In this document: positions 22,068 through 45,444 of the stretch, piece by piece
Layout of the letters: every line of letters begins with the position of its first letter
Numbering within the stretch: the stretch's first letter is position 1
DNA from: an uncultured Gammaproteobacteria bacterium
GTDB taxonomy: Bacteria > Patescibacteriota > Microgenomatia > Daviesbacterales > UBA10151
Direction of reading: 5' to 3'
Length of the DNA: 57,911 nucleotides
Assembly (NCBI GenBank): GCA_964489875.1
Contig: CAZAZW010000002.1
Location: 134,792-192,702 of the forward strand
The notes under the pieces: model-generated
Told to the model about the DNA's origin: nothing
What the model saw: the letters and a program-made list of their open reading frames with translations, nothing else
Databases searched by the model: none
Program-made: the position numbers and the translations under genes

Positions 22068-22098
22068 AAATCCGGTCGCGAAAACGGCCGGATTTTTT
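22068..22098. terminator. Intrinsic terminator just outside the element's left end
   Basis: aaatccggtcg-cgaaaa-cggccggatttttt. Confidence 0.75.
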
Positions 22099-22099
22099 G

Positions 22100-22113
22100 T
22101 GGAGCGGGAGACG
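22100..22113 (+). repeat. Left att site TGGAGCGGGAGACG
   Basis: Exact copy of 45370-45383. Confidence 0.9.
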
Positions 22114-22201
22114 CATTTTATCTGGAACCGCTTATCCCTCAAATTCTAAGTAATTTTACCAGCTTGATGGAAGCATATCAAGCTGAGGAGGAAGACAAAA
22201 T

Positions 22202-22654
22202 ATGAGCTCAGCCCTGCTCAACTCCCAGCTTCATGATGAAAAGACGTTTTATCAAACGTTCTTGCGCGACTTAGAAAGCTGTACAAATGAAGTAATCATT
22301 GAAAGTCCCTACATTACTACTGAAAGAATGAAAACGTTTGATCGTATAGTTAAAAAACTTCTTAAAAACAAAGTAAAAATATACATAATTACCCGTGATC
22401 CAAAGGAACATGAACTAGGTATGGAGATACAATCAGAAGACGCTATACAGTGGTGTGAGACCCTAGGAATACAGGTTCTACTTTGCACAGGCAATCATCA
22501 CAGAAAACTGGCTATTTTGGACAGGAAAATCCTTTGGGAGGGAAGCCTGAATATTTTATCCCAAACATGGAGTAGAGAAATAATGAGAAGGATTGAAGGG
22601 CAGGAACTGGCTTTACAGATGTTTAACTTCCTAAAATTCGAAAAATTCCTCTGA
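22202..22654 (+). CDS. Phospholipase D-family (single HKD) nuclease-like protein
   Basis: HRKLAILD...GSLN; IIESPYI. Confidence 0.85.
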   Translation: MSSALLNSQLHDEKTFYQTFLRDLESCTNEVIIESPYITTERMKTFDRIVKKLLKNKVKIYIITRDPKEHELGMEIQSEDAIQWCETLGIQVLLCTGNHHRKLAILDRKILWEGSLNILSQTWSREIMRRIEGQELALQMFNFLKFEKFL

Positions 22655-22675
22655 ATTTGCTATAGTCAGGTTAGA

Positions 22676-22939
22676 ATGAGTGATAATAGTAACAATCCCG
22701 TGGATTTATTGCCCTGGGATGACATACAAAACGTCAGCCAGGAAGAGCTATTTGGGGAAAAGTTCGGAAAAATCCATAAGAATATATATAAATTTGCAGC
22801 CAATGATAAAAACCGTCAGGCCTTGATCGAATCTGCATTAAAAAGTTTAAGAAAAACCAATCCTAATGCTTCTTATGGACAGGCTGCGTTACTTGCGGAT
22901 ATCATGCAGACTTTTGCTAAGAAAATGTTAGAAGGGTAA
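22676..22939 (+). CDS. Hypothetical protein
   Basis: 87-aa ORF after the PLD gene. Confidence 0.6.
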   Translation: MSDNSNNPVDLLPWDDIQNVSQEELFGEKFGKIHKNIYKFAANDKNRQALIESALKSLRKTNPNASYGQAALLADIMQTFAKKMLEG

Positions 22940-23134
22940 TATCTCCGAGGATTTAACATCAAAGGCTTTAGCGATTTTTTCTATTATCGGTATTCTGGCA
23001 TTTACCTCTCCTCTTTCAACCCTGGCAAAGTAATTGAAATGGATCCCAGCTTTTTTAGCCACCTCAGCCTGTGTTAAATCTTTTTTCTCTCTTATTGCTT
23101 TGATTTTTTTACCAATATCTTCTTTTGTACCCAT
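22928..23134 (-). CDS. XRE/Cro-C1 HTH regulator
   Basis: IRxKKDLTQAEVAKKAGI...ARVERG...KIAKAFDV. Confidence 0.92.
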   Translation of the reverse strand: MGTKEDIGKKIKAIREKKDLTQAEVAKKAGIHFNYFARVERGEVNARIPIIEKIAKAFDVKSSEILPF

Positions 23135-23154
23135 ACAGAAGAATTATACAACTT

Positions 23155-23166
23155 TTCGAGATAGTT
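23155..23166 (-). promoter_or_regulatory. Putative operator AACTATCTCGAA (copy 1, XRE promoter)
   Basis: Identical 12-mer at 43443-43454; both lie just upstream of a TATAAT box. Confidence 0.55.
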
Positions 23167-23214
23167 TGCTCCCCAGTATCTTATAAACTCCCTTTTTGCT
23201 AAAATTGAACCAAA

Positions 23215-23874
23215 ATGGAAGCTACACCTTCAGCTTTTATGACAATTCTTAATACTTCAGCATCAATCTTAAAGGATTATGGTGCATTAATAGGTGCTTT
23301 AATTGCCTCTTCAATAGCTCTATTTCTTGGAGGAGGTGGCGGTAATTGGATAAAAGCATGGTTTTCAAAACCTACATTAAGAATATTATCATTAAAAGGA
23401 TTACATCACACCCATGAACTTGATGTTTGGAGGTTATTAATAAAAAATGAAGGAAAGGCTATAGCAAAAAATGTTCAAGTAGAAGTTATAGAAATAACAG
23501 ATGATGGTAATAAAAAAAGAGAAAATTTTCTGCCACTTCCACTAAGATGGACTCATCTAGATACAGAAGCTAGAGATATTCTTCCAGGCCAAACTGCCTA
23601 CCTTGATATTTTCGAACATATAAGCAGAGGGAAACAGCTGACAAATATGGAATGTTATCTTAGATTTGGTTCTCGATTTGCTGCTCAAATAGCAGATTTT
23701 TGCTTCCTTAAGCCAGGTGAATCTAAAATTAAGATACGCTTACTTCACGATGAAGGAAGTCCTCAAGATATAAAAATCTTTACCAATTGGGATGGTACAT
23801 TACTTTTTGATTCTAAAATAGAAGGTGGAAAATGGGTCTGGGGAAAGCAAGAGAAGTATCAAGCCTCCACTTAA
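23215..23874 (+). CDS. Hypothetical protein with N-terminal TM and beta-rich (Ig-like?) domain
   Basis: AT-rich cargo ORF; IKNEGKAIAKNVQV motif. Confidence 0.65.
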   Translation: MEATPSAFMTILNTSASILKDYGALIGALIASSIALFLGGGGGNWIKAWFSKPTLRILSLKGLHHTHELDVWRLLIKNEGKAIAKNVQVEVIEITDDGNKKRENFLPLPLRWTHLDTEARDILPGQTAYLDIFEHISRGKQLTNMECYLRFGSRFAAQIADFCFLKPGESKIKIRLLHDEGSPQDIKIFTNWDGTLLFDSKIEGGKWVWGKQEKYQAST

Positions 23875-23881
23875 GGATACT

Positions 23882-24331
23882 ATGGATGAATTAACTAAAA
23901 TTTTTTTGACTTCTGCTTTAACAATTATAGGAGGAATTATTATCTATGTGGTAGGTCAAATTCTCTCCAAGTTTTTTATTGATCCCATTCATAAACAAGG
24001 AGAGATAATTGGCGAAATATCAGATACATTGGTTTATTATGCAAGAGAGTATTTAAGTCCAGGAAGGCTTCAAAGAGAAATGTTAGATCAAGCTCATGAT
24101 AGATTGCGTAAATTAGCGTCACTACTAAAAGCTCGATCTTATATGGTGAAATGGTATAGTCTATTTGTGTTTCTAGGATGGGTACCTAAATTAAAGTCTA
24201 TTGAAGAAGCATCAACTCATCTTATTAGTTTATCAAATTCTGTTTATCGAGATTCCTCTAGTAGTGGAATCAGAAATGCTGACAGTGCAAATAAGGTTAG
24301 AGGATTGCTAGGTATTCCGGAGACAGATTGA
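23882..24331 (+). CDS. Hypothetical membrane protein
   Basis: N-terminal TM; AAGGA RBS before ATG. Confidence 0.65.
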   Translation: MDELTKIFLTSALTIIGGIIIYVVGQILSKFFIDPIHKQGEIIGEISDTLVYYAREYLSPGRLQREMLDQAHDRLRKLASLLKARSYMVKWYSLFVFLGWVPKLKSIEEASTHLISLSNSVYRDSSSSGIRNADSANKVRGLLGIPETD

Positions 24332-24466
24332 ATGATTAATCCTTTTAAGTAAGAGGAAAAGAAACCATATACTTACTCTTCAATCGAGATGAGAAAATCA
24401 TCCAGTAAACCCATCTTCTGGACAGTGGGATTTGTTCTATTAACTGTTCTCTTGTTATTTTTTATC

Positions 24467-26920
24467 CTAAGCAATTCCATTTAATAATAACTCCAGTTTG
24501 CTCCAATCATTGCTGACTCTAAAAAGCCAGTTTACACCTTTTCTTTTGCCAGCTGAGGTTAACCATTTAAAAAATGTTTTAGCAATTTCTGGGCCATGCT
24601 CAAGAACTTTATTTGAATTATTCATTATCCATTCAGCGATATTTACTAAAAGCGTATCTTCTATAAGAATAACTTTGCAGTTTGAAGGTTTCTCAGGAAT
24701 ATTCTGAAGCTTGGTTACAACATTATTAAATCCAACAGGGTCACTAAAGTTAGAGATGAAAGAGTAAATGCGTAATTTTCCTAGAGATTTAGGCTCCTCG
24801 TTTTCTTTCAACCACTTAACATACCCTCTCTGTTTCCTATAATCTTTGGTGGATAGATTGTAGTTTGTACTGAAACTATATTTTGCATCCCACCCGAAAA
24901 CTCGATAATTCTTTTCCCTTCCAATACGATAACCACAATATCCATCTGGAACTGAAATGCCTTTAAAGTTTGAGCCTAGCCTAACTACATTAGGAACCAA
25001 AGCTTGAAATATGTTTTTAATATCTATTTCAAATAAATCCTCATCATATCCTGTGGCTTTATTTTTTATAGCATTAGTTGACTCCTTAAGTCTCTGGTAA
25101 ATTCTTTGTAAAGCACTTTGCTCTTGAGAAATAATTGACTCATTGAATAAACTAATCAATTCATTAGTGCTGCCTTCCAAATTCATCAGAAGCTCAGTTG
25201 TCACTTCAGTTAAGGCTAAACAGTTAATTCCTTGAGCTTCAAGTTCGTCTTTCTTCCCTGAAAAGTGAGTATCGTTTAATGTTATTAACCCATATCCTTC
25301 CCGGGCTAATGCTTCGCAAAAGGATAAATCTTTTTTCTCTAATAAGGGAATAATATAAATAGCTAAGTTTGTCTTTTTGTTAGTCAATCTGATTACCCAT
25401 TTTTTGTATCTACTTCGCTGGACCTTTTGTTTAAGGATTTCATAATCAGTAAGGTTAGATGCAAATTTAGTTGCTAGCTCTTTTAAAAAAGAAGTGTCAT
25501 TAATTTTAATTGATAGTCCTTCTCCCATTACAATCATATCCCTTCCGCACGTTCCGCAGGTCAAATTTAACCAAGAATAGGTATGACAATTCCAATCTTC
25601 GCATCTTCTCTTGGTTACCTTTTTTTGCTTCTTTATCAATTTGTGGCGTAACAATTTAACCAGAATCTCATCTGCTTGTTTAGGAATAGCGGGATCAACG
25701 CTTATTGCTTTATCAAATAAAAATTTTTCTATAATCTCGGGAGGAGTCATCTGTCTGATAACAAATCTTGTCTCTTTAATTTCCGCTCCAACAACAGCCT
25801 TTAGTTTTTCTAAAAAATCCGTTTCTAGCGCTATAGATTTTCCTCTAGTATTTGTATTAATAGTTATTCTTTCCCACTCATCTCTTCCATAAGAGTAAAT
25901 TCCTATTTTTGATCCATTCAGGCGGTAGGTTATATTATTTACGCTTGTTACCCCCTCGTTTTCCCAATAGCTTTTTAGCTGTTCTAAAGCTTCAGATATC
26001 GGCTGATCGTTAGTACCCTCAATCCTTATTAATGGGGATTTCGCTAACTGAATATTTTTAAAAGTTATGCCAAACAAATCTAATCCATGATCTTGCTCGT
26101 TTACATTTACTAATTTATTCAGCAGAACTTTATCATCAAGCGCTACATCTGTTCTGGGCGAGAAAATAGAGTCTGGATAAATCTCCTTCTTAATAAATCT
26201 ATGAACTTCTGATACTTCTCTCATGGACTTTGAAACATACCCAATTTTCTTATTTGTTAAGTCTAAGACTAGGGTTGTGTATGCAATTCTCTGGGCCTCT
26301 AATGCTTGGTCTTCTGTTGGTATCATCTCTACCCCTATGGGTTTAGATATTAATAAAACAAATAAATCTGTTGTTTCTAGCTTATATCTAATTTCTCTCC
26401 GAGTTCTGAGTCGGTGATGAAGAATATTGCACAATCTTTTTGACTTTCTGTTAATTTTGTCAATAAGTTGTGCTGATGTTAGATCAGAATTTATCTTCAA
26501 CCAAGTTGTTGGACTACCTTTTATCCGATATTTACAGTAGGTAAAAATATCTTCGGGGAGCTTTTGGTTGGTAAATAGATCTTCTGCGATATGCAAATAG
26601 ATTTGGATCTCAAGTCTTCGGTCAGTTTGAGTTAACTGCAAATACTCTTTTACAACACTGAGTCTATTATTCTCAATAAACCTTTTTATTAAAACTAATC
26701 GTAGTAGAATGATATCATACGTCTGGGAATTATCGTTCCAATATCTATCTGTATGAATTAAACCCACTAAAATTTGCTTGTCAGCTTCAGAAAAAGTATT
26801 AAAAAACGCATATAAACCTGACAAGTATTTTTGAGATTGAGACTGTTTTTTTCCAATACTTGTTTCTAGGTTCCACCATTTATGAAGTTCATCTCTTTGT
26901 AGCAGTGTCTCGTGAATCAT
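24467..26920 (-). CDS. Large protein with Zn ribbon and C-terminal PD-(D/E)xK nuclease-like domain (candidate defence protein)
   Basis: CxxxxC...CxxC; FEIDIKNIF...VPDGY...GWDAK. Confidence 0.6.
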   Translation of the reverse strand: MIHETLLQRDELHKWWNLETSIGKKQSQSQKYLSGLYAFFNTFSEADKQILVGLIHTDRYWNDNSQTYDIILLRLVLIKRFIENNRLSVVKEYLQLTQTDRRLEIQIYLHIAEDLFTNQKLPEDIFTYCKYRIKGSPTTWLKINSDLTSAQLIDKINRKSKRLCNILHHRLRTRREIRYKLETTDLFVLLISKPIGVEMIPTEDQALEAQRIAYTTLVLDLTNKKIGYVSKSMREVSEVHRFIKKEIYPDSIFSPRTDVALDDKVLLNKLVNVNEQDHGLDLFGITFKNIQLAKSPLIRIEGTNDQPISEALEQLKSYWENEGVTSVNNITYRLNGSKIGIYSYGRDEWERITINTNTRGKSIALETDFLEKLKAVVGAEIKETRFVIRQMTPPEIIEKFLFDKAISVDPAIPKQADEILVKLLRHKLIKKQKKVTKRRCEDWNCHTYSWLNLTCGTCGRDMIVMGEGLSIKINDTSFLKELATKFASNLTDYEILKQKVQRSRYKKWVIRLTNKKTNLAIYIIPLLEKKDLSFCEALAREGYGLITLNDTHFSGKKDELEAQGINCLALTEVTTELLMNLEGSTNELISLFNESIISQEQSALQRIYQRLKESTNAIKNKATGYDEDLFEIDIKNIFQALVPNVVRLGSNFKGISVPDGYCGYRIGREKNYRVFGWDAKYSFSTNYNLSTKDYRKQRGYVKWLKENEEPKSLGKLRIYSFISNFSDPVGFNNVVTKLQNIPEKPSNCKVILIEDTLLVNIAEWIMNNSNKVLEHGPEIAKTFFKWLTSAGKRKGVNWLFRVSNDWSKLELLLNGIA

Positions 26921-26953
26921 TTTTTGCTGCTCGTATTATACTCCAGATAGAAC

Positions 26954-27577
26954 TCATATGCTTGGGCTTCCAGAGCCTAAAAACGTTCTTGGATTTACCG
27001 GAATTCCATAAACCCTAACTTCAAAATGTAAATGGGGGCCGGTTGACCAGCCTGTTGAGCCCATTCTGCCTATGACTTGTTTTGTGGAGGTTATCTCTTG
27101 CCCTTTTACTACAAATATTTTATCAAGATGGGCATATACCGACGTGATGTTATTACCATGATCAATAATAATATTCTTGCCGTATCCCCAGAATATTTCA
27201 CCTGCATAGATAACTTTACCGGGTAAAAACGGGTTTACAGGATCACCAATCTTTCCCTGTGCATTGGCTATATCAATCCCTGTATGAAAAATCTGGAAAC
27301 CGCTGCTTTGTGCAAACTCCAAAGTTATGACTCCTGTTGCAGGCCAGGCAGCTTTTACCTCTACCTGGGTAGCTTCACCTGTTGTGGGGTCATGTATTTC
27401 TACATTTTGGGTAGTCTCATTAACTGTTACCAGTTTATCGGAGATGATATCAAGCCCGATTTGAGTTAACAGGATTATGGCAATGATCGGTATTAAGATG
27501 GCTATGCCAAAAGCCAATAAAACAAACTTTAACTCTTTTCTAAAGGAGAATATGAGGTAAAAAAATTTTGGATTCAT
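26954..27577 (-). CDS. M23 peptidase (conjugation-associated cell-wall hydrolase)
   Basis: HTGID, YAHL, STGPHLHFE. Confidence 0.92.
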   Translation of the reverse strand: MNPKFFYLIFSFRKELKFVLLAFGIAILIPIIAIILLTQIGLDIISDKLVTVNETTQNVEIHDPTTGEATQVEVKAAWPATGVITLEFAQSSGFQIFHTGIDIANAQGKIGDPVNPFLPGKVIYAGEIFWGYGKNIIIDHGNNITSVYAHLDKIFVVKGQEITSTKQVIGRMGSTGWSTGPHLHFEVRVYGIPVNPRTFLGSGSPSI

Positions 27578-27615
27578 CTGCTTCTTGGGCAGATGGGAAC
27601 ATTATATCGCAAGTT

Positions 27616-28158
27616 CTACCTCAACAGTGAAACTCTTCTAATAATCATCTCCGCTTCTCCTGGAACACCAAAATTAGCATTTGGGTATATGATAGCCCCT
27701 CGAATGGGTGACACATCCTCACCTGTAGGATTACAAACTCCAAAGATAATGGTTTCATAGTTTGCCAGATGTTTTTCCACTAATCTTTGGATAGGGATTC
27801 GAATTCCTCTTTCAACGTGAGCATACCAACCTTTCTTGGGATGAGTATTCCCGTGAGCAGATAAAACAGCAACTTTTGTAGTTGTAAGCAAATCCCTGAC
27901 TTCTTGTGGAATATCCCCTCCTACCCAGCCTCGATTTAAAACATCTTCTAATGCCTCATCTGCAAACTCTTCGTCAGTGGGCCACTGGGGACGAAACCTG
28001 GGGACTATTTGTGCATAATCTGCCTCCAGGCTACCAAACATTTCTCGGCTTAGAAAGATATCGGCTTTTAGTGATCTGTCTTTCGGGTAAGATGCCTCCG
28101 AATACTTAATTATTCTTGCCCTGTCAAATCTCACAACTTCAAAACCTTGTTCGATCAT
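27616..28158 (-). CDS. Hypothetical protein with caspase/CHAT-like His-Cys spacing
   Basis: VAVLSAHG ... IIFGVCNP; near-leaderless start. Confidence 0.55.
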   Translation of the reverse strand: MIEQGFEVVRFDRARIIKYSEASYPKDRSLKADIFLSREMFGSLEADYAQIVPRFRPQWPTDEEFADEALEDVLNRGWVGGDIPQEVRDLLTTTKVAVLSAHGNTHPKKGWYAHVERGIRIPIQRLVEKHLANYETIIFGVCNPTGEDVSPIRGAIIYPNANFGVPGEAEMIIRRVSLLR

Positions 28159-28236
28159 GCCGGTGATTATACGAGGGATAAGAAAGTAAGTCAAAACTAA
28201 AAGTCGTTCTTGCCAACTGTATACTTAACAAAATTT

Positions 28237-30075
28237 TTATCCTAACTGTATTCTTTCTGCCGGATTAGTGGTAATTAGGGGATGTTCTGATTGGGAAGCT
28301 ACTACCTTTAAGGCTACATGGTTCTGGTCTGCAATAATTAAGGCTTCACCTCTATCGCATGAGAGAAGAAACTTTTGCTCATATTCAGATAAATTAAACT
28401 CTTCAGCTACTTTTTTAATGGTAGTGGTATCCTGCCTCATTAGAACCCGCAGGGATGATTGGGAGGCTATGGCCTTACCATATTCACTGTTTAGAAAATC
28501 ATTAGCCTGCTGGGAAATGACCGATACGCCTAGGTAGTATTTCCTGGCTCTTCTGGCAAGTCCGGCTATAAAATTAGCTGTTTCTTCATGTTTTAAAAGC
28601 ATCCAGCCCTCATCTATCACCAGCAGCCTTTTGACGGGATCTTTTTTCACCTGGTTAAAGACAAAGGAAGCTACCACAAACATCATGATCTGGCGCAGTG
28701 ATTCGGACAGGTCTTTAATATCGAAGACCACCAGTCTGTTGTTTAACTCAATATTGGTCTGTGCATCAAATACCCCGGTCAGCGACCCTTTTATATACTT
28801 GGTAAGCCTGGTGCAGAGCTTTTTCTGGCCTAACTGCCTTAGGGTTTTATATAAGTCTTTGAGTATTGGATAAGCTCTCACTTTCTTTGGCCTGCCTCTT
28901 TTAACTTTTTTCTTTCTTCCTCTTTTCTTAATGTTGATGTTTTCATTAACGTTTTCTGTTTCATCTTTCATGGAATGGTGGAACTGTTTATATGTTTGGA
29001 TTATGGCTTTATCTACCACGGCCTTTTCTTCCGCAGTTAACCCGTCTGCCATTAAAGACACCAGCTCAGTTAAATCCTGGATATGCTCCGGCAGGCCGTT
29101 ACCTTCTTCGGTGTTGGAAGACAGGGAAAAATCAAAGGGGTTTAGTTTCTCTTTTGACCTGACCGAGAGTTTAATATAGGTGCCGCCGACAGATTCAGCT
29201 AAGCGTTTATATTCCCTTTCCGGATCTATGACTATCACCTTGGTGCCCTGCATTAAGTGCCGCAGTATCTCAACTTTGGCCGTATAGGATTTACCTGACC
29301 CGCTTTGGGCAAAGGTAATGCTGTTTGAGTTGTTTAAGGAAAACCTGTCAATCATCACCAGGGAATTGTTGGATTTGTTGATACCGTATAAAATCCCTGA
29401 TTCCTGCACCAGCTCAGATGAGGTAAAGGGAAAAGTTAGAGCAGTTGATGATGAATCCAGGTTTCTTCTCTGGCCCAGTTGGTTTTCTGCTCTCGGCAGA
29501 ACCGACTGTAAACCCTCAAGTTGCTGGAAAGTAGCTGTTTTGGAATAGAATAATCTTGTAGAGAGTACTGTTTCCAAAAGAGTGGTGATTTTATTAAGCT
29601 CAACTAAGGAACCGGCAGTGATGGTGATATAAATTGAGATCTGGAATAGTTTTTCCTGACCTCGCTGGATTTTATTCTTAAGCTCAATGGCAGAATCCAG
29701 GGGATCGGATATTTCCGAGCCGATTATTTTGCCTGACTGCTGCATGCTTCTTTTAGTTGATTCAAGCTCAGTAATCTTCCTGTTTAGTTTGGGTAAAGCC
29801 AATATCGGGTCAATATGTTCTACATGGTAGGAGATATCGACGTTATGGTTAAAGTTAATTAACATGGTGAGCCACCCGGTTGAGGCTACGTATGGATAAC
29901 CGGAGACAAAAAGTGTCCTAACAAATTTATTACCCAACACAAGGTGATTGGATTGTTCTTCCAACCCGGAGTATGAAATTAGGTCAACCTGATCCTGCCC
30001 TCCGACATTAAATTTAACTGCCTTCTGTGTGGCCTTTTTTCTTTCCTTAAGATCAGAAAATATACTAAATTGCAT
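28237..30075 (-). CDS. virB4: VirB4/TraE-like T4SS ATPase
   Basis: AQSGSGKS Walker A, IDPEREY, LVIDEGW Walker B, ARKY. Confidence 0.9.
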   Translation of the reverse strand: MQFSIFSDLKERKKATQKAVKFNVGGQDQVDLISYSGLEEQSNHLVLGNKFVRTLFVSGYPYVASTGWLTMLINFNHNVDISYHVEHIDPILALPKLNRKITELESTKRSMQQSGKIIGSEISDPLDSAIELKNKIQRGQEKLFQISIYITITAGSLVELNKITTLLETVLSTRLFYSKTATFQQLEGLQSVLPRAENQLGQRRNLDSSSTALTFPFTSSELVQESGILYGINKSNNSLVMIDRFSLNNSNSITFAQSGSGKSYTAKVEILRHLMQGTKVIVIDPEREYKRLAESVGGTYIKLSVRSKEKLNPFDFSLSSNTEEGNGLPEHIQDLTELVSLMADGLTAEEKAVVDKAIIQTYKQFHHSMKDETENVNENINIKKRGRKKKVKRGRPKKVRAYPILKDLYKTLRQLGQKKLCTRLTKYIKGSLTGVFDAQTNIELNNRLVVFDIKDLSESLRQIMMFVVASFVFNQVKKDPVKRLLVIDEGWMLLKHEETANFIAGLARRARKYYLGVSVISQQANDFLNSEYGKAIASQSSLRVLMRQDTTTIKKVAEEFNLSEYEQKFLLSCDRGEALIIADQNHVALKVVASQSEHPLITTNPAERIQLG

Positions 30076-30685
30076 ATGCTCCTTCAAAAATTGGTTTTAG
30101 AGTTTCAGCTTTCAGGGGCTGGGATTTTATCTGGTCAGAGTTGTAGAAAGTATAGAAAAGGTCAAGGATTTCCAGGGAATCAAGTATTCTGGTTTTCATG
30201 CCCAGCTTTTCCAGACCCTTAATGACAATGTCCTGGTTTAACAGAAGCTGTTCTTTGGCCAGGGCAAAATCATGTTTTCCGTCTGTCACATCATAGGGAA
30301 TAACCACATAAAATCTTCTTGATAATATTTTATTCCCGGATACCAGGTCGGTAATAAACGAGCAGTAGCTTTGAATTTGGGTTTTGTAGACCTCCTCTTC
30401 TTCATTGCTTTCTTTTTTGCTGAATTCCTCCAGGTACCGGTCAATATCTACCTCCCTGACCCGGATCAGGATCTGAAGCGGGCAAGGAAGCGAATTTAGG
30501 AAATTCTGGAAATTATCAATAATGGCATCCTGCTCATCTTCGCTTTTTAGCTCAAAATTGATGGCTGAAGTTTCAATTATGCTCCGGTACTTGTTACCGG
30601 GAAGAATAAGCATATTATCCTTAACTTCCTTAATCCTGATCTGCCTTCTGGAGGAAGATTTACTTTTTGGCTTGCCAAACAGCAT
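30065..30685 (-). CDS. Conjugation protein (PrgI C-terminal / TraC-associated type)
   Basis: INFELKSEDEQ...FLNSL...QILIR; adjacent to virB4. Confidence 0.7.
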   Translation of the reverse strand: MLFGKPKSKSSSRRQIRIKEVKDNMLILPGNKYRSIIETSAINFELKSEDEQDAIIDNFQNFLNSLPCPLQILIRVREVDIDRYLEEFSKKESNEEEEVYKTQIQSYCSFITDLVSGNKILSRRFYVVIPYDVTDGKHDFALAKEQLLLNQDIVIKGLEKLGMKTRILDSLEILDLFYTFYNSDQIKSQPLKAETLKPIFEGAYAI

Positions 30686-31160
30686 TGATGCCTCCCTTAT
30701 CAAATTTAAAGGATAGTTTTGCCCTTGAGATGCCTAAAATACGTTCAATACTGTCCGGATCAAACATCGGGGCATCTTTTTCCTTCCCGGCTTTATTTAG
30801 CTTTAAAGCTTTTCTCACTTTCTTTTTAATAACCGGCTCTAAAACAATATCCCGAAGATAAACATCATTTTTATCGGAAACATAATAAGCCGGCCGCAAG
30901 TAATAGCCGGTCAGGATAAACAGCCAGTTCAATACCACTCGGCCTTTTATTCTAAGAGCCAGTGTGAAACAAACTAAAAAACTAATAATTATCATGGGTA
31001 TTTTATAAATTGAGAACTGCAACCTGGCAGGCAGGACGGCATAAATGCCTACTGCAATAAAGAGAGAGGCTAAAAGAAGCAATATCTGGGTCAAATTAAA
31101 ATTACCTGCTATCTTATCCTCAATTGTGGTGATCTGTGCCGGTATGACTGTTGTCCTCAC
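30660..31160 (-). CDS. PrgI/VirB3-like membrane protein
   Basis: PAQITTIEDKIAGNFNLTQ followed by two TMs. Confidence 0.8.
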   Translation of the reverse strand: MRTTVIPAQITTIEDKIAGNFNLTQILLLLASLFIAVGIYAVLPARLQFSIYKIPMIIISFLVCFTLALRIKGRVVLNWLFILTGYYLRPAYYVSDKNDVYLRDIVLEPVIKKKVRKALKLNKAGKEKDAPMFDPDSIERILGISRAKLSFKFDKGGINAVWQAKK

Positions 31161-32449
31161 GCTGCCACCGTCCTTCTGGGTGTTACTTTTGTCCCGTCTA
31201 TCTTACCTGCCATAGAAGCTTCTTTTGAGCTGGTTGAGATAACATTCATGATCTGCCCGCCGATTTTCCTGACCATGCCCCGGCCGGTGTTATAGAAAAC
31301 CAGCTGCATCATAATGGAGGGAGTTTTAAGCAGGGTAAACAGCAGCCCTATACCTACCAGGATTGATATCAGCGAATTGGTGCCGGACTGGCCGGAAACA
31401 GTTAAGAATGAAGCTGCCAGCTGGATAATAACCACATGAACAAAAACAGTATAAACGGCAGTAATGTAAGCCTTAACTGAAATCTCGGCAAAATCAGCAA
31501 ATTTAGGGATAGCCCACAGCAGAAAAATTAAGGGGGACATGACAGCCCCCAGGGCAATGGTGATCAGCCTTGTGACATAGAATAAAAGCAGCACTATGGC
31601 CACAATGATAAATAAAATCATAAAGATAAATGTGATCAGCGGAGTACTGTCTGTCACAATTGAGGCCGGTGTAAAGGCATTTTGTATCCAGGCAGAGTTT
31701 AGTCCGCCTGTTGCATTAAGAACTGCCTTAATTAAGGTATTGCAGCTTAAAACTATCCAGTCGGCTAAAAATATGGACATGTTGGCTCCCAAAAAAGCCA
31801 GGCCGATCCGGGGGAGCAGATGTTTAAATTCAATCTCTTCAAACCCGAATGTGGAAGCGGACATGAAATGAAACCCCAGCAAAGCTATAACCAGGACAAA
31901 CAAAGAATCGGTGATTCCCACCATCACCAGCCAGAAATTAAAGATCACGGAGTTGGTCAGGATGGAAGGCGTATTGGTTAAAAAAGTAATAATTCCGTCA
32001 GTTAACGGCTTGGTGGCAGACTGGACAATGTTTTGCAAAAACCCGGCTATGGCATCCAGCAGCACCTGAGTTAAACCGTCCGAGGGCTGGACAGGCTGGA
32101 TGGGAGAAAGATTAAGCTGGGCAGATGATGTGCCCTGATTTGGTGTGTTAAAAGCACCCTGAAGCAGGGAAGATAAAACAGCAGCGGAGATGACAACCAC
32201 CAGTCCGATGAGGGCATTTCTGACTGTCAGCTTGGCATGCTCGAGGGCATCCGGCTTGCCGGTTGAGGTGATATACATATATCCTCCCCTGACCAGAAAA
32301 AATGTGGCAGCAGCCGTGGCAAATATCAGCAGGGTACTTAAGGTTTGGTTTGTGAATGTTGATATTTCAGAATTTGTTTCAGCCGCAAAAACTAAAGCGG
32401 GGTTGAAAAGCAAAAATAATATACCTGCAGAAGCTGTTAAAAACTTCAT
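31157..32449 (-). CDS. VirB6/TrbL-like polytopic membrane protein with N-terminal pilin-like repeat
   Basis: GYMYITSTG..ALEHAK..ALIG pilin motif, then many TMs. Confidence 0.75.
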   Translation of the reverse strand: MKFLTASAGILFLLFNPALVFAAETNSEISTFTNQTLSTLLIFATAAATFFLVRGGYMYITSTGKPDALEHAKLTVRNALIGLVVVISAAVLSSLLQGAFNTPNQGTSSAQLNLSPIQPVQPSDGLTQVLLDAIAGFLQNIVQSATKPLTDGIITFLTNTPSILTNSVIFNFWLVMVGITDSLFVLVIALLGFHFMSASTFGFEEIEFKHLLPRIGLAFLGANMSIFLADWIVLSCNTLIKAVLNATGGLNSAWIQNAFTPASIVTDSTPLITFIFMILFIIVAIVLLLFYVTRLITIALGAVMSPLIFLLWAIPKFADFAEISVKAYITAVYTVFVHVVIIQLAASFLTVSGQSGTNSLISILVGIGLLFTLLKTPSIMMQLVFYNTGRGMVRKIGGQIMNVISTSSKEASMAGKIDGTKVTPRRTVAA

Positions 32450-32471
32450 ATCCTATTTATATAGGCAGGTA

Positions 32472-32804
32472 TTATTGGGCGCCGCCGAAAGCGGAAGTTG
32501 CAATCTGGGTGACTATATTAGATAGAACAAATGCTCCCAAAACTATTGCCAAACCGATTGCGGAATACATGACGGTTTTCTTGGCTCCGTCCAAGGCTTC
32601 CGGGTTGCCGGAACTGGTAATGTAGCGGAATCCTCCCCAAACTAAAAATGCCGTAGCAACCAAACCTGCCAGGGTAACAAAAATCTGGATAATATTCTGG
32701 ATAAAACTTTGGACTTTGGAAATATCAGCAGACTGGGCAAATACCGGAGAGGCAACTACTAAAGCTGTTAATAAAACGCAAGATGTTAATATTACTTTTT
32801 TCAT
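32472..32804 (-). CDS. VirB2/TrbC-like pilin
   Basis: Signal peptide; GGFRYITSSGNPE..AKKT...AIGL; GGAGGTG RBS. Confidence 0.85.
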   Translation of the reverse strand: MKKVILTSCVLLTALVVASPVFAQSADISKVQSFIQNIIQIFVTLAGLVATAFLVWGGFRYITSSGNPEALDGAKKTVMYSAIGLAIVLGAFVLSNIVTQIATSAFGGAQ

Positions 32805-32845
32805 ACCTCACCTCCAATCTCTGTTAAAGTGGGCAGAAAATATAC

Positions 32846-32875
32846 AAAAAAAGGCTGCCATCAGCAGGCAGCTTT
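32846..32875 (-). terminator. Terminator-like hairpin in the leader of the transfer operon
   Basis: Minus strand aaagctgcc-tgctgat-ggcagcc followed by T7. Confidence 0.6.
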
Positions 32876-33032
32876 GATTAAGTGCCATCTTATAAAAAAT
32901 AATCCCATAAATCAAGAGGCAAAAACAGGTTTTGTAAGAGTCAAGAAGCGTAACCGATGCATTTCGTCTTCTGCAATTTATATACAATACTTGTTGAGCC
33001 AAACTTTTTGATTATTTCTCCACTTTTCCTAC

Positions 33033-33061
33033 TTGAAACTATAGGACTTTTTTGGTATAAT
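33033..33061 (+). promoter_or_regulatory. Sigma70-type promoter of the cargo module
   Basis: TTGAAA-17-TATAAT with extended TGn; ATG 9 nt after the -10. Confidence 0.7.
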
Positions 33062-33070
33062 TTATTCCCT

Positions 33071-33844
33071 ATGATTGATCGTGATCCTAGATTCATAAAT
33101 CCCAAAGATTTAGGTCTGTCTGATCCTGCTGGATTAATGCCTTTGAAAGAGGTTACTACTCAGACAGTTTTGCGTGACGGGAGAGGGATTAGGTGGTCTG
33201 AATTAAAAAATGATGAAAAAACTTTAAAAGATACTGTAGAAACGGAAGTAAGAAAATTATTGCCAGGTGAATGCAAATTAACAATCAAGCTCTTACGCAC
33301 AAATAAATTGTCGGGATTAGAACATGCAATAATAAGATATTACCCTGGAGGATTAAGCGCATTAAGAAAAACTTTAGGAGACGAAACCAATCCTAAACCC
33401 CGTAGTTATTGGCAAGATCCGGAAGCGGTGAAACAAGAAACTGTCCGCTTTATGGAAGACGAAGGAGGCTTTTCTTTCAATTTACTTTCTAACAAGGGCA
33501 GAAATGACCTTTCAATTGCAATTAGAAGACACTATCAAGGCGGCATGAAACAGTTAAGAAAGGATTTAAATCTTGAACCAAGACCAGAAACAAAACCTCT
33601 TGGATTTTGGAATAATCAGGAAACAATAGAATCAGAAGCTCTTAATTTTTTTGAAGAAGAGGGCACACTATCCTTTTATGCATTGTTACGCAAAAGGGGT
33701 TCTTTAGCACGAGCAATTCTTAAGAAATACCCTGGGGGGATGCACAGTTTAAGAGAAAAACTTTCTATTCCAGATCCACGTAATAAAAAGAAAGTTCTAC
33801 CCGAGGAAGCCGATCAAGAACTAAGAAAATTAATAGAGGAATAA
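33071..33844 (+). CDS. Tandem-repeat protein A (3 x ~63-aa KPxxYW...YPGG units) with C-terminal PEEADQELRKL tag
   Basis: Repeats visible in translation; start placed after the promoter. Confidence 0.8.
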   Translation: MIDRDPRFINPKDLGLSDPAGLMPLKEVTTQTVLRDGRGIRWSELKNDEKTLKDTVETEVRKLLPGECKLTIKLLRTNKLSGLEHAIIRYYPGGLSALRKTLGDETNPKPRSYWQDPEAVKQETVRFMEDEGGFSFNLLSNKGRNDLSIAIRRHYQGGMKQLRKDLNLEPRPETKPLGFWNNQETIESEALNFFEEEGTLSFYALLRKRGSLARAILKKYPGGMHSLREKLSIPDPRNKKKVLPEEADQELRKLIEE

Positions 33845-33847
33845 ATT

Positions 33848-33955
33848 ATGGAAAGAGAATTAACCGGAGAACGAGGATTACTTTATAATCAGCAGCCTAC
33901 ATTCGAGATACCCAGAGATTCAAGAGGCAGGATAAGGTGGTCAAAAATAATATGA
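33848..33955 (+). CDS. 35-aa micro-ORF or truncated paralog carrying only the PRDSRGRIRW motif
   Basis: MERELTGERGLLYNQQPTFEIPRDSRGRIRWSKII*; GAGGA RBS; ATGA overlap with the next gene. Confidence 0.6.
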   Translation: MERELTGERGLLYNQQPTFEIPRDSRGRIRWSKII

Positions 33956-35256
33956 ATCCAGAAACTCGAAAATTACCAATGCGGGAAGCTGTTCAACGAG
34001 GGTTTGAGCCTCCTCGGGACAACAGGGGTAGAATAAGATGGCAGGTTTTAAAGCAGGAACCGGTTCAACTCACTGCCTTTATTGAATCGGAGTCGCGCTT
34101 GCTTATATCGCGAGGAATTCAGCTTAAGCATAAGGAATTAATGAAAGCCGGGGTATCATACCTATCGAGGGCGATTGTAACCTATTATCCTGATGGCTAC
34201 AGCGGTTTGCATCAGGCTTTAGGATTATCAACTAAGTGCAAACCCAGAAACTATTGGGCAAGACCTGAAGCAATTGAGATAATGAAGCAGGATGTGGAAG
34301 CAATTCGTCAGCAAGAAGGCAGAATCAGTGAACCGCTGTTGCGCCGGGTCAAAAGAACTGATTTGATTCAGGCAATCAGAAAACACTATCCCGGCGGCTG
34401 GCAACAACTAACAGCTGATTTAGAGATTTCATCACAACAAAAACCGCGGGGATATTGGACAAAAGAAACAATCAAAAAAGAAGCTGATGCTTTTTTAAGC
34501 AAAAACGGAGTATTATCAAAGTCTTCTTTATATCAGGATGGAAGATGCGATCTGGCTACAGCGATTACCGGTAAGTATCCCGGAGGCCTCGAGGCTCTAA
34601 AGACAGAATTACAGGTTAACACACGAATGAAACCACACGGATATTGGAACCTAAATTCAATTCAAGTGGAAGCGGCCCAATTTTATGCCGAATTCGGAAG
34701 TTTATCTCCGGATACCTTAGTGAAAAACGGCAGAGGTGATTTACTTCATGCTATTTTCGATAGATACCCAGGAGGCATTAAAAAACTTCAAAACGACCAA
34801 GGGATTGCATCCCGAAGAAAAGAAACCGGCTACTGGACAGTAGAGCGCATCAAAGAAGAGGCTCTCGCCTTTTATAATCAACATGGGAAACTAACAGGTC
34901 CCTGTTTAATCGCAGAAGGCAGGGGTGATCTAACAAATGCTTTTAGGGATTACCCCGGCGGATTGAGAGGACTTCAGAAGGATCTAGATATCAAAACTAC
35001 TAAACAACCTAATGGTTACTGGACGGTTGAGAAAATTGAAGAAGAAGCTGCCGAGTTTGTAAAGCAACATACCACAATTAGTTTTGAATCATTAAGAAGG
35101 GAAAGGAAATTTAGCTTGCACGTAATGATAGGCAGACTTTACCCGGGTGGCATAGCTGCCTTAAAGGAGAAACTAGGAGTAAGTGAATTACCTGAAGCAA
35201 CGCTATCTCCTGATGAAGCAAATTTTGAACTGGCAAAGCTGATAGAAGAAGTTTAG
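33952..35256 (+). CDS. Tandem-repeat protein B (6 x ~63-aa units) with C-terminal PDEANFELAKL tag
   Basis: KPxGYW...E(A)..F....G.L....L...GRxDL..AI...YPGG...L..L repeats. Confidence 0.85.
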   Translation: MNPETRKLPMREAVQRGFEPPRDNRGRIRWQVLKQEPVQLTAFIESESRLLISRGIQLKHKELMKAGVSYLSRAIVTYYPDGYSGLHQALGLSTKCKPRNYWARPEAIEIMKQDVEAIRQQEGRISEPLLRRVKRTDLIQAIRKHYPGGWQQLTADLEISSQQKPRGYWTKETIKKEADAFLSKNGVLSKSSLYQDGRCDLATAITGKYPGGLEALKTELQVNTRMKPHGYWNLNSIQVEAAQFYAEFGSLSPDTLVKNGRGDLLHAIFDRYPGGIKKLQNDQGIASRRKETGYWTVERIKEEALAFYNQHGKLTGPCLIAEGRGDLTNAFRDYPGGLRGLQKDLDIKTTKQPNGYWTVEKIEEEAAEFVKQHTTISFESLRRERKFSLHVMIGRLYPGGIAALKEKLGVSELPEATLSPDEANFELAKLIEEV

Positions 35257-35258
35257 AT

Positions 35259-35287
35259 TTGAACTATAGGTCACAATGTAGTATAAT
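35259..35287 (+). promoter_or_regulatory. Sigma70-type promoter of the helicase gene
   Basis: TTGAAC-17-TATAAT; shares AACTATAGG with the promoter at 33033. Confidence 0.65.
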
Positions 35288-35296
35288 AATATTTAA

Positions 35297-38200
35297 ATGG
35301 TAACAGAACGTATAGAAACAACAGAACAAACAATAGTACCTGATTTCACTGAAAGAATTATCGGGAAATATTCTATATCTAAACAGGCTTTAGAGAAAAT
35401 CATCACTCTCCAGCCTACCGATCCTGATTATCCCCTTTCTAGTTCTTTTGAGGATAACTATCAAGCTTCTAATAATTCAGAGATGAAATATGCAATTGCC
35501 AGAGCTTTAATCGCAGACGGCAGATATTCGAATACACCTTGGTTAGTACGCAAATTTCTTGCCCCAGGGCAAGAGGTTGCACCGGAGATCAAACAACTCA
35601 AGGGTAATTTACAATTTCATTTAGTCAAAGAAGGCCGGGTAGATATAAACTCCGGTGAAGCTAAAGAAGCCGAAGATGAAGTTTTGGGTTATGTTGACAG
35701 AAGCGAATTGCTAAAGAAGCTTAGGCAGGTTCTTCCTATTCATGTGATGGGAGCAATTACCAATGCCCTACTTTTTGAAGACGTTACGGATGAAAAGAAG
35801 AAAGAAAAACTCAGATCTTTCACCACAAGAGCTCTAATTAGGCCTTATCTAGGCGATCTTTTGGTACAAAGACCACTTGGAGAAATTGATTTTAGAGACT
35901 TAGTAGTGATGGTACCTGAGAAGGTATTCAAAAACGCAGATACAGCTACCTTGGGGATTGTTAGAAATCATTTAGTTTCAGAGGCTATGAGACTATTTAT
36001 CAATAACGAAGAAGAGGGTTTCCGAAGTCTTTCTGTCAGCACTTTAACTGAAACCTCTCCTGTGAAAAGAGAGTTTTTAGAAAAAGTTGAGCGTGAATTT
36101 CATGAGATTGCGGAGGTTCAAATTCCGCCTGTTTTTTACTCTGAAGTTGAAGGTTGGTTTGCTGATAAATCACCTTTCCCTCTTTTCAGACAAAAATATT
36201 TTGTCTATGAATTTTTGAGGAGTAGAAGATCTTTTTTAAACGGTGATACCGGAGCTACCAAAACAGCTTGTGCATATCTGGGAATGGAAACAATAGGAGC
36301 ACAGAGAGTAACGATTTTTGGCCCTGCCAAGGCCCGTAATACCTGGCCAAGAGAAGCTGAAAAGATCTTCTTAGATGAACACAGGCCTGATGTTTTTGCT
36401 GTCAGAAGGTTTAAAGATTTAGAAGACCCAAGGGTGGAGACCGCCAAATATGTCTATGTTGGCAGCGAGCTTTTAGGCGGGGCTTGGAATAACCCGCAGT
36501 TATATGGACGAATCCAGAAAGCCTTACTTGAGAAACGTCAAACAGACGGTTTAATTTTTGATGAATCAGATGAATTTTGCCACTCGGGTGCAAACTGCAC
36601 AAAAATGCTTGTTGACCTTGTTAAAAAAATGCATGAAGGTTATAGACAAAGAAATGTCTTCGAAATGCCGTCAATTGCTTTAACAGCTACTCCAATAAGC
36701 TCCAGTCTTGAAGATATGGATATTACCATGGCGCTTTTATATCCTGACAAATTCTCACTTCCGAGACAAAAGGGTGATGGTGTTTATCCCTTTAGTATCC
36801 AAGCATTAAGAGACCCTAAACTCGCTTATTTCCTGCTTCAGGGTGAAGGTTTAATGATTCAGTGGAGCCTAGAGGATCTCTTTGGGGAAAAGGCGCCAAA
36901 ACTTAAGTTTGGTCCTGAAAATAGAATCAGTATTGCCACCTCCCCTACACAGGAAATTATTTATGAATGGGCGGCTGGTTTACAAATAGGAACACTGGCT
37001 AAAATAAGGCTTTTGCGGGCTGTATTACTCAATCCTGAACTGATCAAAAGAGCCTGCCAGGAGAGAAATCTGATACCCGAACCGGTATACAGCAAGGAAG
37101 GATTAGTTGAGAAATTTCATGAATTACATGAAGCATGGATGAAGTGGACAATTGATAAGGATGGGAGAATCCCCTACGAAAAATTTAGCACTGACTGGAT
37201 TGCCAAATACGGAGATAGAGATTTGCTTCTGCAGTGCTTCTTTGATGATAAATTAATAGACGGAGTTGAAAGTTTATCCAGAAGATATCCAGAGATTTAT
37301 AGTGACTGGCAAACTCAAGATACTGTTTCAGGGAAATATTCAGCCTTAAAACGCTTCTTGCAGGAAAGAATTGTCAGAAATGGGGATGGAAGTTATCATG
37401 CCCGGGAGAAAGTCTTCGTAGTTTCACCATACCATAAAAGAGGTATTACGAGATGGCTTGATGATCCCAACACTAAAGATGAGGATTTGGAAGATAACGC
37501 CTGGAGTCTTTATGAGTACATGCATATGGACTGGCTTCCAGACCTACCAGCAGATATGGCGATTAATATTGACGGAACCAGATCTTTTACTGCCCGTGAT
37601 CGGGCTGCTGGCTTTTTTCGGGAATACGGCAATAAAAATGCTTTAGTAATTGCTTCAATGGACTCAGTTAACGAAAGTATGGACTGGGCAATCAGAGATA
37701 CTGAGTCAAACAGAAATATAGAAAGACTGAGTGTGGTGTTCCTGGGGTGGCCATTTGGTTTTGATGAATTTAAGCAGATGACCGGAAGATTTTTAAGGCC
37801 AGGCCAATCAAAACCGGTTGATATTTATGTCTATGAAGGTGAAAATTCAATAGATCAGGGATTCTTTAATTTAGTTAGAGTCAAACACCTTTTAACTCAG
37901 ATGGCTTTAGCAGGAGTAAATTTAAGCCCGGAAGACCAGGAATTTTTCAAATCCTCGACCTCCGCTAAAAGAATTTTGCTTGCACAACCGAATGTTGGTC
38001 AGGCGTTCTTGCGGGATGTTGTTAAAAGAATGGCTGGTTTGGGTGAGCGGGAAGCTGCTGGAGAGCTTTCTAAAGATAAAGATGGTAAGACCTATGAACA
38101 ACTTTTCGCTGAATTCTATTTTGATGAGGGTAAAGATGAATTCAGAATTGTAGGAAACAATGCGGAGCTTGCCAAAAATATTCTGTTTAGGACTAATCCC

Positions 38201-39166: not shown

Positions 39167-39180
39167 GGGGGTGGTAAAGA

Positions 39181-39693
39181 ATGGTAGAAAACAGAACAAC
39201 TGAGTTTTTTAATCAAAATGTAGCAGATTTAGAAGAAGCTCTGCGAAATAGGATCTTAATAGACCAAACTGCTAATAAACAGGTTCAGCTTACCAGGTTA
39301 GAACCCTATCCTAAAGTTGGCCCAAGATATAGAGCGATAATTGCCGAAAAAATGCAACCAGGCGAGATTTGGATTCCTTATATTCCGGTAAGAAGAATGA
39401 GTCAATCTCTTATTATAGCTAAAAGTATTGAGCCTGAAGTTGGAGCTTGTGTAAGAGTACTCAGAGGTAGCTATTATGATCTGGAGAAAGGTGAATTCGT
39501 TCCAATGCCGCGAGAAGGCGATATCGCCAAATATTTAGGATTAGGTCAGTTTGAGAGAGCCAGCCTTAGATTCCTGGACGAATCAGAAGCTTTATATATT
39601 ATAAGAGGTGAACACATTCGTAATTCACCAGATGCGAGTGCAGGTATTAATCCTGATGAGGCAAACGGCGAATTGAAAAAGCTCTTACAATAA
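39181..39693 (+). CDS. Divergent 3-methyladenine DNA glycosylase (AAG/MPG fold)-like protein with C-terminal PDEANGELKKL tag
   Basis: EFFNQ..LEEALRNRIL, LEPY (cf. ETEAY), PGEIWI, GACVRV, GDIAKYLGL appear in AAG motif order. Confidence 0.55.
   Translation: MVENRTTEFFNQNVADLEEALRNRILIDQTANKQVQLTRLEPYPKVGPRYRAIIAEKMQPGEIWIPYIPVRRMSQSLIIAKSIEPEVGACVRVLRGSYYDLEKGEFVPMPREGDIAKYLGLGQFERASLRFLDESEALYIIRGEHIRNSPDASAGINPDEANGELKKLLQ

Positions 39694-43859: not shown

Positions 43860-45444
<1,585 letters not shown>

Follow-up and report, generated by a model that had tools for sequence, protein, structure and literature searches.

A large serine integrase gene that very probably spans its own attP site, and its conserved circle-form tail, in a tRNA-inserted element of Patescibacteria

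Introduction

The integrases of the phages Mx8 and BPs are tyrosine recombinases, and in SSV1-type systems the integrase gene is partitioned when the element integrates into a tRNA gene. In Tn4451 (TnpX) and Tn916, circularisation joins the two ends and creates or completes a transcription unit. Serine integrases are valued for genome engineering as enzymes that work in one direction, which is normally set by a separate protein. Here we compare these systems with a locus in a 57,911-nt stretch of contig CAZAZW010000002.1 (assembly GCA_964489875.1, positions 134,792 to 192,702), referred to below as the window, in which a 23.3-kb element inserted in a tRNA-Gly gene encodes a large serine recombinase at one end and a PLD-family nuclease at the other. 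It is very probable that the gene of this serine integrase spans the attachment (att) site of the element, attP, and therefore exists in two forms, encoding 511 residues in the integrated state and 539 in the circular state.

The closest described system is that of Mx8, where attP lies inside the integrase coding sequence and the recombinant gene produced by integration has another 3' end and encodes an enzyme whose properties are altered (PMC6070905). Mx8 IntP/IntX resembles the present locus in that the attP core lies inside the integrase open reading frame (ORF) and that the C-terminus differs when the element is integrated, and it stands closer still than SSV1 and BPs, to which an earlier note on this DNA had aptly compared the locus. 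It is a phage tyrosine recombinase, whereas here we find a large serine recombinase with an antisense-tRNA tail, in what appears to be a conjugative element, and a large clade shares the layout; the locus is not a member of the Mx8 type. The SSV1-type enzymes are archaeal tyrosine recombinases whose gene is split in its body, whereas here just a short C-terminal tail is lost. In BPs/Brujita and in CyranoPS, attP lies in the 3' end of a gene, the C-termini of the viral and the integrated proteins differ, and integration breaks an operon (PMC3694055; CyranoPS preprint); the part of the BPs repressor that is removed on integration is a degradation tag (PMC3694055). In those phages the gene that is cut encodes the repressor, whereas here it encodes the recombinase.

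Among the serine integrases, those of SPbeta (SprA/SprB), A118/LI, Bxb1 and phiC31 share with the present enzyme the resolvase, recombinase and zinc-ribbon domains with an inserted coiled coil, and simple att sites with a shifted outer motif. Direction is set in SPbeta at the hinge of the coiled coil (PMC11722253) and by a separate factor, whereas here a C-terminal helix found only in the circular form is predicted at that place. In the literature searched, attP was located within the integrase ORF for none of SPbeta, A118, Bxb1 and phiC31. The phiRSM integrase is likewise a serine recombinase that uses a reverse-oriented tRNA 3' end; its attP/attB core is the 3' end of a tRNA-Ser gene in reverse orientation, and attP lies between two ORFs (PMC3816273). 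That enzyme is of the small resolvase/invertase type with attP outside the recombinase gene, whereas the present one is large and has attP inside. Where the circles of Tn4451 and Tn916 create a promoter or read-through, the circle considered here would complete a coding sequence and couple the downstream gene to it. We found no description of a serine integrase gene spanning attP in full-text searches of the literature. An attP inside a gene is known from the integrase genes of Mx8 and SSV1 and from the repressor genes of BPs and CyranoPS; added here are a full element that appears to be conjugative, the coupling to the PLD gene, a 5-bp site geometry and the predicted docking at the hinge.

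The element and its integration site

The features of the locus are collected in Table 1. The element is delimited by two exact copies of a 14-bp direct repeat, TGGAGCGGGAGACG (0 expected by chance), which has no further copy in the rest of the 0.89-Mb genome (8 contigs, ~39–41% G+C). The copy on the right forms the 3' end of a tRNA-Gly(GCC) gene. The unoccupied site was found in G138, a genome of the same genus from which the recombinase is absent: at locus L230 of that genome, the terminator hairpin of the left flank adjoins a single copy of the core, and tRNA-Gly follows. Because of this empty site, the boundaries of the element are fixed independently of the repeat. Integrative conjugative elements are recognised by an integrase, by att repeats and by an exact unoccupied site in a relative, all of which occur here, and from the gene content between the two cores the element therefore appears to be an integrative conjugative element. 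The hairpin on the left is the host-side arm of the original attB and probably insulates the PLD gene from host transcription. The genome from which the element comes is a Patescibacteria genome of the Microgenomates type. In a further genome of the same genus (G406:C1, locus L227, 2097–2310), the tRNA-Phe/tRNA-Gly pair is inverted relative to the conserved left flank.

Table 1. Features of the element and its flanks, in window coordinates
Feature	Position	Strand	Basis
Host hairpin followed by T-run (ATCCGG...CCGGAT TTTTT)	22068..22099	no strand	read by eye; same hairpin adjoins tRNA-Gly in G138
Integrated element	22100..45383	no strand	unique 14-bp repeat, empty site in G138, gene content
Left att core, displaced last 14 nt of tRNA-Gly, antisense	22100..22113	+	repeat search
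Putative far-end coding segment of the recombinase, 30 codons and stop TGA (22203–22205)	22114..22205	+	translation; conserved in frame in 17/17
PLD-family nuclease gene (single HKD motif, Nuc-like), 150 aa	22202..22654	+	PF13091, E 4.9e-12
Mating-pore genes: M23 peptidase, VirB4-like ATPase, TrbL/VirB6-like protein, pilin-like protein	26954..32804	-	domain matches
Replic_Relax protein (PF13814) and type IV coupling protein	39736..43362	-	domain matches
Promoter-like site TTGACA-18-TATAAT, 12/12 match	43438..43467	+	consensus match only; upstream of ORF43506
ORF43506, 117 aa, no known family	43506..43859	+	upstream of the recombinase in 19/19 relatives
Large serine recombinase, integrated form, 511 aa	43856..45391	+	PF00239, PF07508, PF13408, phrog_95
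Right att core, within both the recombinase ORF and tRNA-Gly	45370..45383	+	repeat search
tRNA-Gly(GCC), integration target	45370..45444	-	T-loop GAAC at 45390–45393 (plus-strand reading)

Two forms of the recombinase gene

The recombinase begins with a resolvase domain (PF00239, E = 2.9e-31, residues 15–162), in which Y18, L19, R20, V21 and S22 are invariant in 46 homologues. It continues with PF07508 (E = 2.7e-05) and the zinc ribbon PF13408 (E = 4.7e-08), and C301, C304, C325 and C329 are invariant in the same homologues. In an AlphaFold2 model of the homologue P0042, helices 355–402 and 408–431 make up a predicted coiled coil within the zinc-ribbon domain, and HMMER aligns residues 337–435 of the recombinase with residues 364–466 of the SPbeta integrase, covering its coiled coil (E = 0.015). 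Judged by its domains, coiled coil and att sites, the protein is a putative large serine integrase, and attP × attB catalysis is predicted for it.

Read across the right core (TCT GGA GCG GGA GAC GGG ATT TGA), the integrated form of the gene takes its last 6 residues and its stop from antisense tRNA-Gly, the stop TGA lying inside the T-loop motif TTTGAAC. Continued from the right-hand core into the left-hand one, the same frame translates 22101–22205 as GAGDAFYLEPLIPQILSNFTSLMEAYQAEEEDKI and then reaches a stop. The circular form would thus comprise 505 + 34 = 539 residues, with 30 codons beyond the left core. Retranslation gave the same lengths of 511 and 539 residues as the earlier note, and all of its coordinates were correct. 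The crossover, placed among the final bases of the tRNA acceptor end, would fall in codons 505–507 of the integrase.

An open extension of this length that ends in an overlap with the next gene had been thought unlikely to arise by chance. By our own arithmetic, an open run of 30 codons at ~38% G+C has a probability of ~0.13 and the ATGA frame one of ~1/3, or ~0.04 jointly; the other two frames at the left end close after 15 and 16 codons. The window taken alone is thus suggestive, and it is the comparison with relatives that argues for a coding tail.

Among 8000 candidates scored, 947 recombinase homologues were found at E ≤ 1e-10, labelled by their sources as Woesebacteria, Levybacteria or Microgenomates, and the tails were inspected in the 120 listed. 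Nearly all of these 120 proteins, which are 476–588 aa long, have antisense-tRNA-like tails of freely varying lengths (for example, ...GIRTRDLLLGKETLYH); the tRNA read-through of integrated-form tails extends over 0 to ~80 residues. For a comparison of whole elements, 401 genomes of the class were sampled, of which 63 had a recombinase match at E ≤ 1e-50. From the best 31 places 20 that appeared to offer sufficient upstream DNA were chosen, with up to 40 kb each, and one (G385) was dropped for too little contig, which left 19 relatives. The att core lies inside the recombinase frame, as had been noted for the window, and the ORF ends in antisense tRNA in 20 of 20 elements including the window (Gly, Leu, Glu, His, Ser, Pro, Lys). 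Of the 80 metagenome loci examined, 62 likewise show an ORF end in antisense tRNA (tRNA-Leu at 31, tRNA-Gly at 18, tRNA-Ser at 4, tRNA-His at 3, and tRNA-Glu, tRNA-Met and tRNA-Val at 2 each). At 12 of the remaining 18 the contig runs out within 75 nt, at 3 the recombinase gene is cut, and 3 are odd (L074, L076 and L122). The core TGGCGGAGAGGGT of phiRSM at tRNA-Ser (PMC3816273) matches the tRNA-Ser cores of two of the relatives, G283 and G295a.

Two of the odd loci can be described further. At L076 (3490–3560), the ORF terminates in ...PSGAP behind TGGAGC, and in place of a tRNA comes a GC-rich hairpin with a T-run; ARAGORN finds no tRNA there despite the 2 kb that follow. At L122 (2040–2175), the recombinase runs into non-tRNA sequence and closes after 11 codons, and the peptide in the +1 frame is faintly tail-like. 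The latter could be a frameshifted or decayed circle-type junction.

Conservation of the far-end tail

The leftmost conserved gene is a PLD homologue on the same strand in 11 of the 19 relatives, and a 4–14-bp copy of the tRNA 3' end stands directly upstream of it. An exact-repeat search for the far ends returned just 2 repeats, of 14 and 17 bp, that exceed the length expected by chance, most cores being 4–12 bp, and was replaced by PLD synteny and a hidden Markov model of the tail. The model, made from 12 tails, led to five more far ends without PLD there (G202, G373, G295b, G295a and G058; E = 9.6e-14 to 0.2). The far end was thus located in 17 of the 20 elements; those of G110, G230 and G336 lie outside the DNA examined. 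Neither the window nor the rest of the genome contains a spare inverted copy of attP.

At all 17 far ends, the phase of the recombinase at the right core is that of the conserved peptide at the left core, and the frame is open for 28–50 codons from the core; the other two frames, checked in 12 of these elements, are closed after 0–22 codons. The earlier note had named stops in this extension in related elements as an observation that would tell against it; in 17 of 17 the extension has no such stop, keeps the frame and is conserved. Common to the tails is the pattern xYFEPLLxHFxxLMEAYQxxxEE, in which E9 and Y26 are invariant and L16 and L22 occur in at least 90%. Length differences in the alignment are whole codons, pairwise identity by codon position 1, 2 and 3 is 0.55, 0.62 and 0.41, and pN/pS ranges from 0.23 to 0.70, below 1 in 8 of 8 pairs. 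We read the tail as being under purifying selection as a translated sequence, and this conserved end of the circular form, ~30 residues long, is predicted to be helical.

The same stretch of DNA contains part of the attachment site. In serine-integrase sites the position bound by the zinc-ribbon domain is more distant from the centre on attP than on attB, with a corresponding offset of 5 bp in the Listeria integrase. For SPbeta, DBD2 is 4 bp closer to the centre on attB (PMC11722253). In all 17 elements examined here, the distance of the element-arm TTYGAAC from the tRNA end exceeds that of the tRNA's T-loop GAAC by exactly 5 bp (in G088 and G058 an extra GAAC nearer the core was set aside, the relevant distances being 24 vs 19 and 25 vs 20). 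The cores of 4–14 bp, in short simple att sites with the outer motif farther out in attP, are those of a serine integrase, and the positions common to all cores narrow the crossover to four bases, 15–18 nt from the host-arm GAAC (derived by hand). Because the half-site mimics the tRNA T-loop motif, the family can use many tRNAs.

In the window, the GAAC of the attP P' half-site (22125–22128) lies inside the tail coding segment, and the Shine–Dalgarno sequence of the PLD gene (GAGGAGG, 22185–22191) lies inside the acidic end of the tail. About ten codons at the start of the tail and 3–4 at its end would therefore be dual-coded, and the middle part (L..HF..LMEAYQ) appears to be unexplained by constraint at the DNA level. 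One could argue from this overlap that the tail is a functionless by-product of a compact genome, with attP overlapping the 3' end of the gene and the frame kept by attP spacing and PLD regulatory sequence. With a fixed attP spacing, as the 5-bp geometry seen in 17 of 17 elements indicates, the frame relation would indeed be inherited, and constraint on the DNA explains the F-E and E-E positions. However, conservation reaches 60–90 nt beyond the core, past a serine-integrase half-site, and a functionless stretch does not account for length differences in whole codons, a third codon position that is the most variable, pN/pS values below 1 in every pair, or the early closure of the other two frames in the 12 elements examined for it. 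We regard this explanation as very improbable, the least probable of those considered here.

Further copies of these sequences were seen near some far ends. In G379 (L064/L065; stitched 10931–11047, ~1.3 kb left of the far end) and in G058 (L062/L063; stitched 32785) additional tail-like remnants or copies of the tRNA 3' end occur immediately beyond the far end, perhaps left over from previous insertions into that tRNA. At the metagenome locus L075 (4164–4527), a second tail motif and a PLD gene occur ~600 nt downstream of a tRNA-Gly in which the recombinase of another element ends; this looks like two elements in neighbouring tRNA genes.

Coupling of the tail to the PLD gene

The stop codon of the tail (TGA, 22203–22205) overlaps the start codon of the PLD gene (ATG, 22202–22204) in the ATGA arrangement that the earlier note had pointed out. 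Among the 12 elements with PLD at this place, stop and start overlap in 10: as ATGA in 5 (G000, G395, G089, G231, G088), as TGATG or TAATG in 2 (G276, G043) and as ATGnnTAA in 3 (G174, G379, G011), the other 2 (G351, G283) having a gap of 8 or 18 nt. At the other junction, the stop of ORF43506 overlaps the ATG of the recombinase (ATGA, 43856–43859), with a GGGAGG ribosome-binding site 8 nt upstream. Consensus scans called no terminator-like site in 43200–45700 and no plus-strand promoter-like site in 22100–22201, between the host hairpin and the PLD ATG.

An operon of ORF43506, recombinase and PLD in the circle, as the earlier note proposed, fits the full promoter match upstream of ORF43506 and the ATGA overlaps at both junctions. 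ORF43506, the full-length integrase and PLD would then be expressed from a single promoter, as a translationally coupled unit found in the circle alone, and we infer that PLD is transcribed and translated with the integrase from the circle only. Expression that apparently follows excision alone would offer a testable handle on the role of the nuclease in transfer. Two promoter-like sites on the minus strand (22115–22181) point leftwards out of the element through the tail segment; in the circle they would give antisense reading into the recombinase gene.

Is coupling all that the tail is for? Its translation might serve solely to bring ribosomes to the PLD start, tying PLD synthesis to excision, while the peptide itself is idle in recombination. 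This would agree with the overlap in 10 of 12 elements, with a ribosome-binding site inside the tail, with the lack of a called promoter-like site before PLD in the integrated state and with the position of all invariant recombinase residues upstream of the core. For such a purpose an open frame would suffice, yet the hydrophobic pattern is kept (L16, L22 and Y26 at 90–100%), the tail stays in frame in 5 elements without PLD behind it, and the complex prediction described below docks the tail on the recombinase, with controls at 0.00. Coupling as the sole function is in our judgement unlikely.

Predicted docking of the tail

For the complex prediction, residues 1–505 of the recombinase (46-row alignment) and the 34-residue tail (12-row alignment) were treated as separate chains. 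The complex received a score of 0.66, compared with 0.00 for the best of 3 controls, and the verdict "supports binding". This score was reached by 58 of 80 solved complexes and by 2 of 110 mismatched pairs, counts that are rough, as our own alignments were used. The runs share at least 47% of contacts, and the pLDDT (predicted local distance difference test) of the partner is at least 61.

In the model, the tail contacts recombinase residues 360–371, 434–448, 460–470 and 491–498. By the HMMER alignment, the first of these segments corresponds to SPbeta residues 388–399, within the outgoing inter-hinge segment 380–401, and the second to about 465–479, to be compared with the returning segment 468–479, where the numbering is extrapolated beyond residue 435. 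The SPbeta cryo-EM preprint places the hinges at 379/380 and 401/402 of the outgoing chain and at 467/468 and 479/480 of the returning chain, and describes an essential C-terminal helix of the directionality factor that is packed between DBD2 on one side and the inter-hinge region on the other (PMC11722253). Because its contacts map to the hinge segments of SPbeta, the tail is predicted at the place where direction is set, packing on two segments at the base of the coiled coil.

The tail, or the tRNA-derived sequence that replaces it, might alternatively set the stability of the protein and not its direction, with one isoform degraded fast and the other persisting, as for the BPs repressor and its tag. 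There is precedent in integration-dependent immunity (PMC3694055; CyranoPS preprint), and in the integrated form the tail is whatever the tRNA read-through happens to encode, over 0 to ~80 residues. Such a role sits poorly with the tails themselves: they have no recognisable degradation tag in common, their ends are acidic and variable, no tag-like end of the kind known from integration-dependent immunity is shared among the 12, and what is conserved in them is an amphipathic helix with a predicted docking site. A role in stability therefore seems to us quite improbable.

A possible directionality switch

The reading that we prefer is that the tail acts on the direction of recombination. In the circle, the tail would occupy or stabilise the hinge of the coiled coil, and the enzyme made there would be fixed in integrating mode. 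The tail-less enzyme made from the chromosome could be switched to excision by a co-expressed factor, for which ORF43506 is a candidate; as a candidate directionality factor, this protein matches no Pfam, PHROG or named Atlas cluster. ORF43506 would be co-transcribed with the integrase in both states, so that its presence could not tell them apart, which the tail could do. The state of the DNA itself would in this way select the direction of the enzyme, and PLD would be made and act only after excision.

Taken as a whole, an attP-spanning integrase gene with a conserved circle tail on the hinge, coupling to PLD and direction set by DNA state seems to us the best explanation, somewhat likelier to be right than wrong. 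The mechanism in itself, with integration by the full-length enzyme, excision by the tail-less enzyme with the factor, and PLD acting after excision, is a serious possibility that we would stop short of calling probable. The strictest version, in which the circle-only tail is a built-in directionality switch that plugs the hinge and makes an obligate integrase, while the tail-less enzyme and the 117-aa protein carry out excision, is more tentative still.

The sequencing data bear on the existence of the circle. All 16 runs listed are Logan contigs from groundwater or drinking-water metagenomes, and four were compared with 41000–49000 of the window. A 1199-nt contig of run X1 covers 44201–45399 and spans the integrated junction. 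The loose ends listed at 45366–45372 include none with a match to the left host flank, nor any that departs from the element side at the core. In viral contigs, a protein query gave 1 distant locus and an alignment query 74 loci, of which L151 (53% identity, integrated in tRNA-Phe) is the sole close one, the other 73, with at most 35% identity, not having been checked for PLD. The earlier note had asked for both products of excision: the empty attB exists in the same-genus genome G138, while the attP junction was not seen among the loose ends shown for the contigs of the four runs.

Several points weigh against the explanation as a whole. No circular junction or empty site of this element was seen in the contigs of the four groundwater runs (~8x depth; 282 loose ends not shown). 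PLD is found directly after the recombinase at 0 of 80 metagenome loci and not at the viral-contig locus L151, and the tail motif directly after the recombinase likewise at 0 of 80 metagenome loci; in 5 of 17 elements no PLD follows the tail. Conservation of the tail is in part a matter of DNA, the invariant F-E being the half-site TTYGAA and the acidic end the ribosome-binding site of PLD, and its pN/pS is as high as 0.7 in some pairs. All invariant residues of the family (46 homologues) lie before residue 495, and the tail-less form may be fully active. The docked chains are halves of one gene, so that the passing score reports the confidence of the model in an intramolecular packing and is not a measurement. 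In the AlphaFold2 prediction for P0042, a natural homologue of 531 aa, the non-tRNA tail has a pLDDT < 50; this protein diverges from its 88%-identical relative P0055 directly after 'IPLG' and may be a circle form, but the low confidence of its tail favours neither side. The direction of the tail effect and the role of ORF43506 rest on inference.

If the strictest version is true, each recombination would rewrite the integrase gene such that the next enzyme favours the reverse reaction, a memory of the DNA state held in the protein, and this memory switch would be used across a large clade of tRNA-targeting Patescibacteria elements, with PLD acting strictly after excision. If confirmed, a substrate state that alters the integrase C-terminus at the site of direction control would amount to a new and simple form of direction control, and integrases docking on the universal tRNA T-loop motif could readily be drawn from this family.

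Gene content of the element

The translation of the PLD gene contains the motif HxK(x)4D(x)6GSxN in the form HRKLAILD...GSLN, and with a single domain the protein appears to belong to the Nuc-like members of the family; a PDB sequence search with it gave no match at E 0.1. The VirB4-like ATPase matches PF19044/PF12846. The coupling protein is encoded at 40696–43362 (PF10412, PF12696), and the neighbouring Replic_Relax gene at 39736–40590 (PF13814, E = 2e-08) is the sole relaxase candidate; no oriT was identified in the element. The element also encodes a 1289-aa protein with a methyltransferase domain.

Other ORFs of the element have no Pfam family. One of 817 aa (24467–26920, minus strand) has homologues with 37–40% identity in the related elements G110 and G088, and two adjacent ORFs of 295 and 439 aa (32957–35256) are built of ~60-residue repeats with a mutual identity of 35–40%.

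The type IV secretion system (T4SS) cluster (VirB4, TrbL, pilin and M23), the coupling protein and Replic_Relax, at 24467–43362, lie inside the tRNA-bounded mobile element, and the same gene order occurs in G395, G174, G276, G089, G043, G011, G379, G231 and G088. A 2025 survey judged the T4SS of Patescibacteria to be mostly chromosomal, relaxase-less and non-conjugative (PMC12102498), and recombinase, integrase, tRNA and excision go unmentioned in the parts of that survey drawn on here. In contrast to that judgement, at least some T4SS clusters in these Patescibacteria genomes sit on tRNA-inserted mobile elements that appear to be conjugative.

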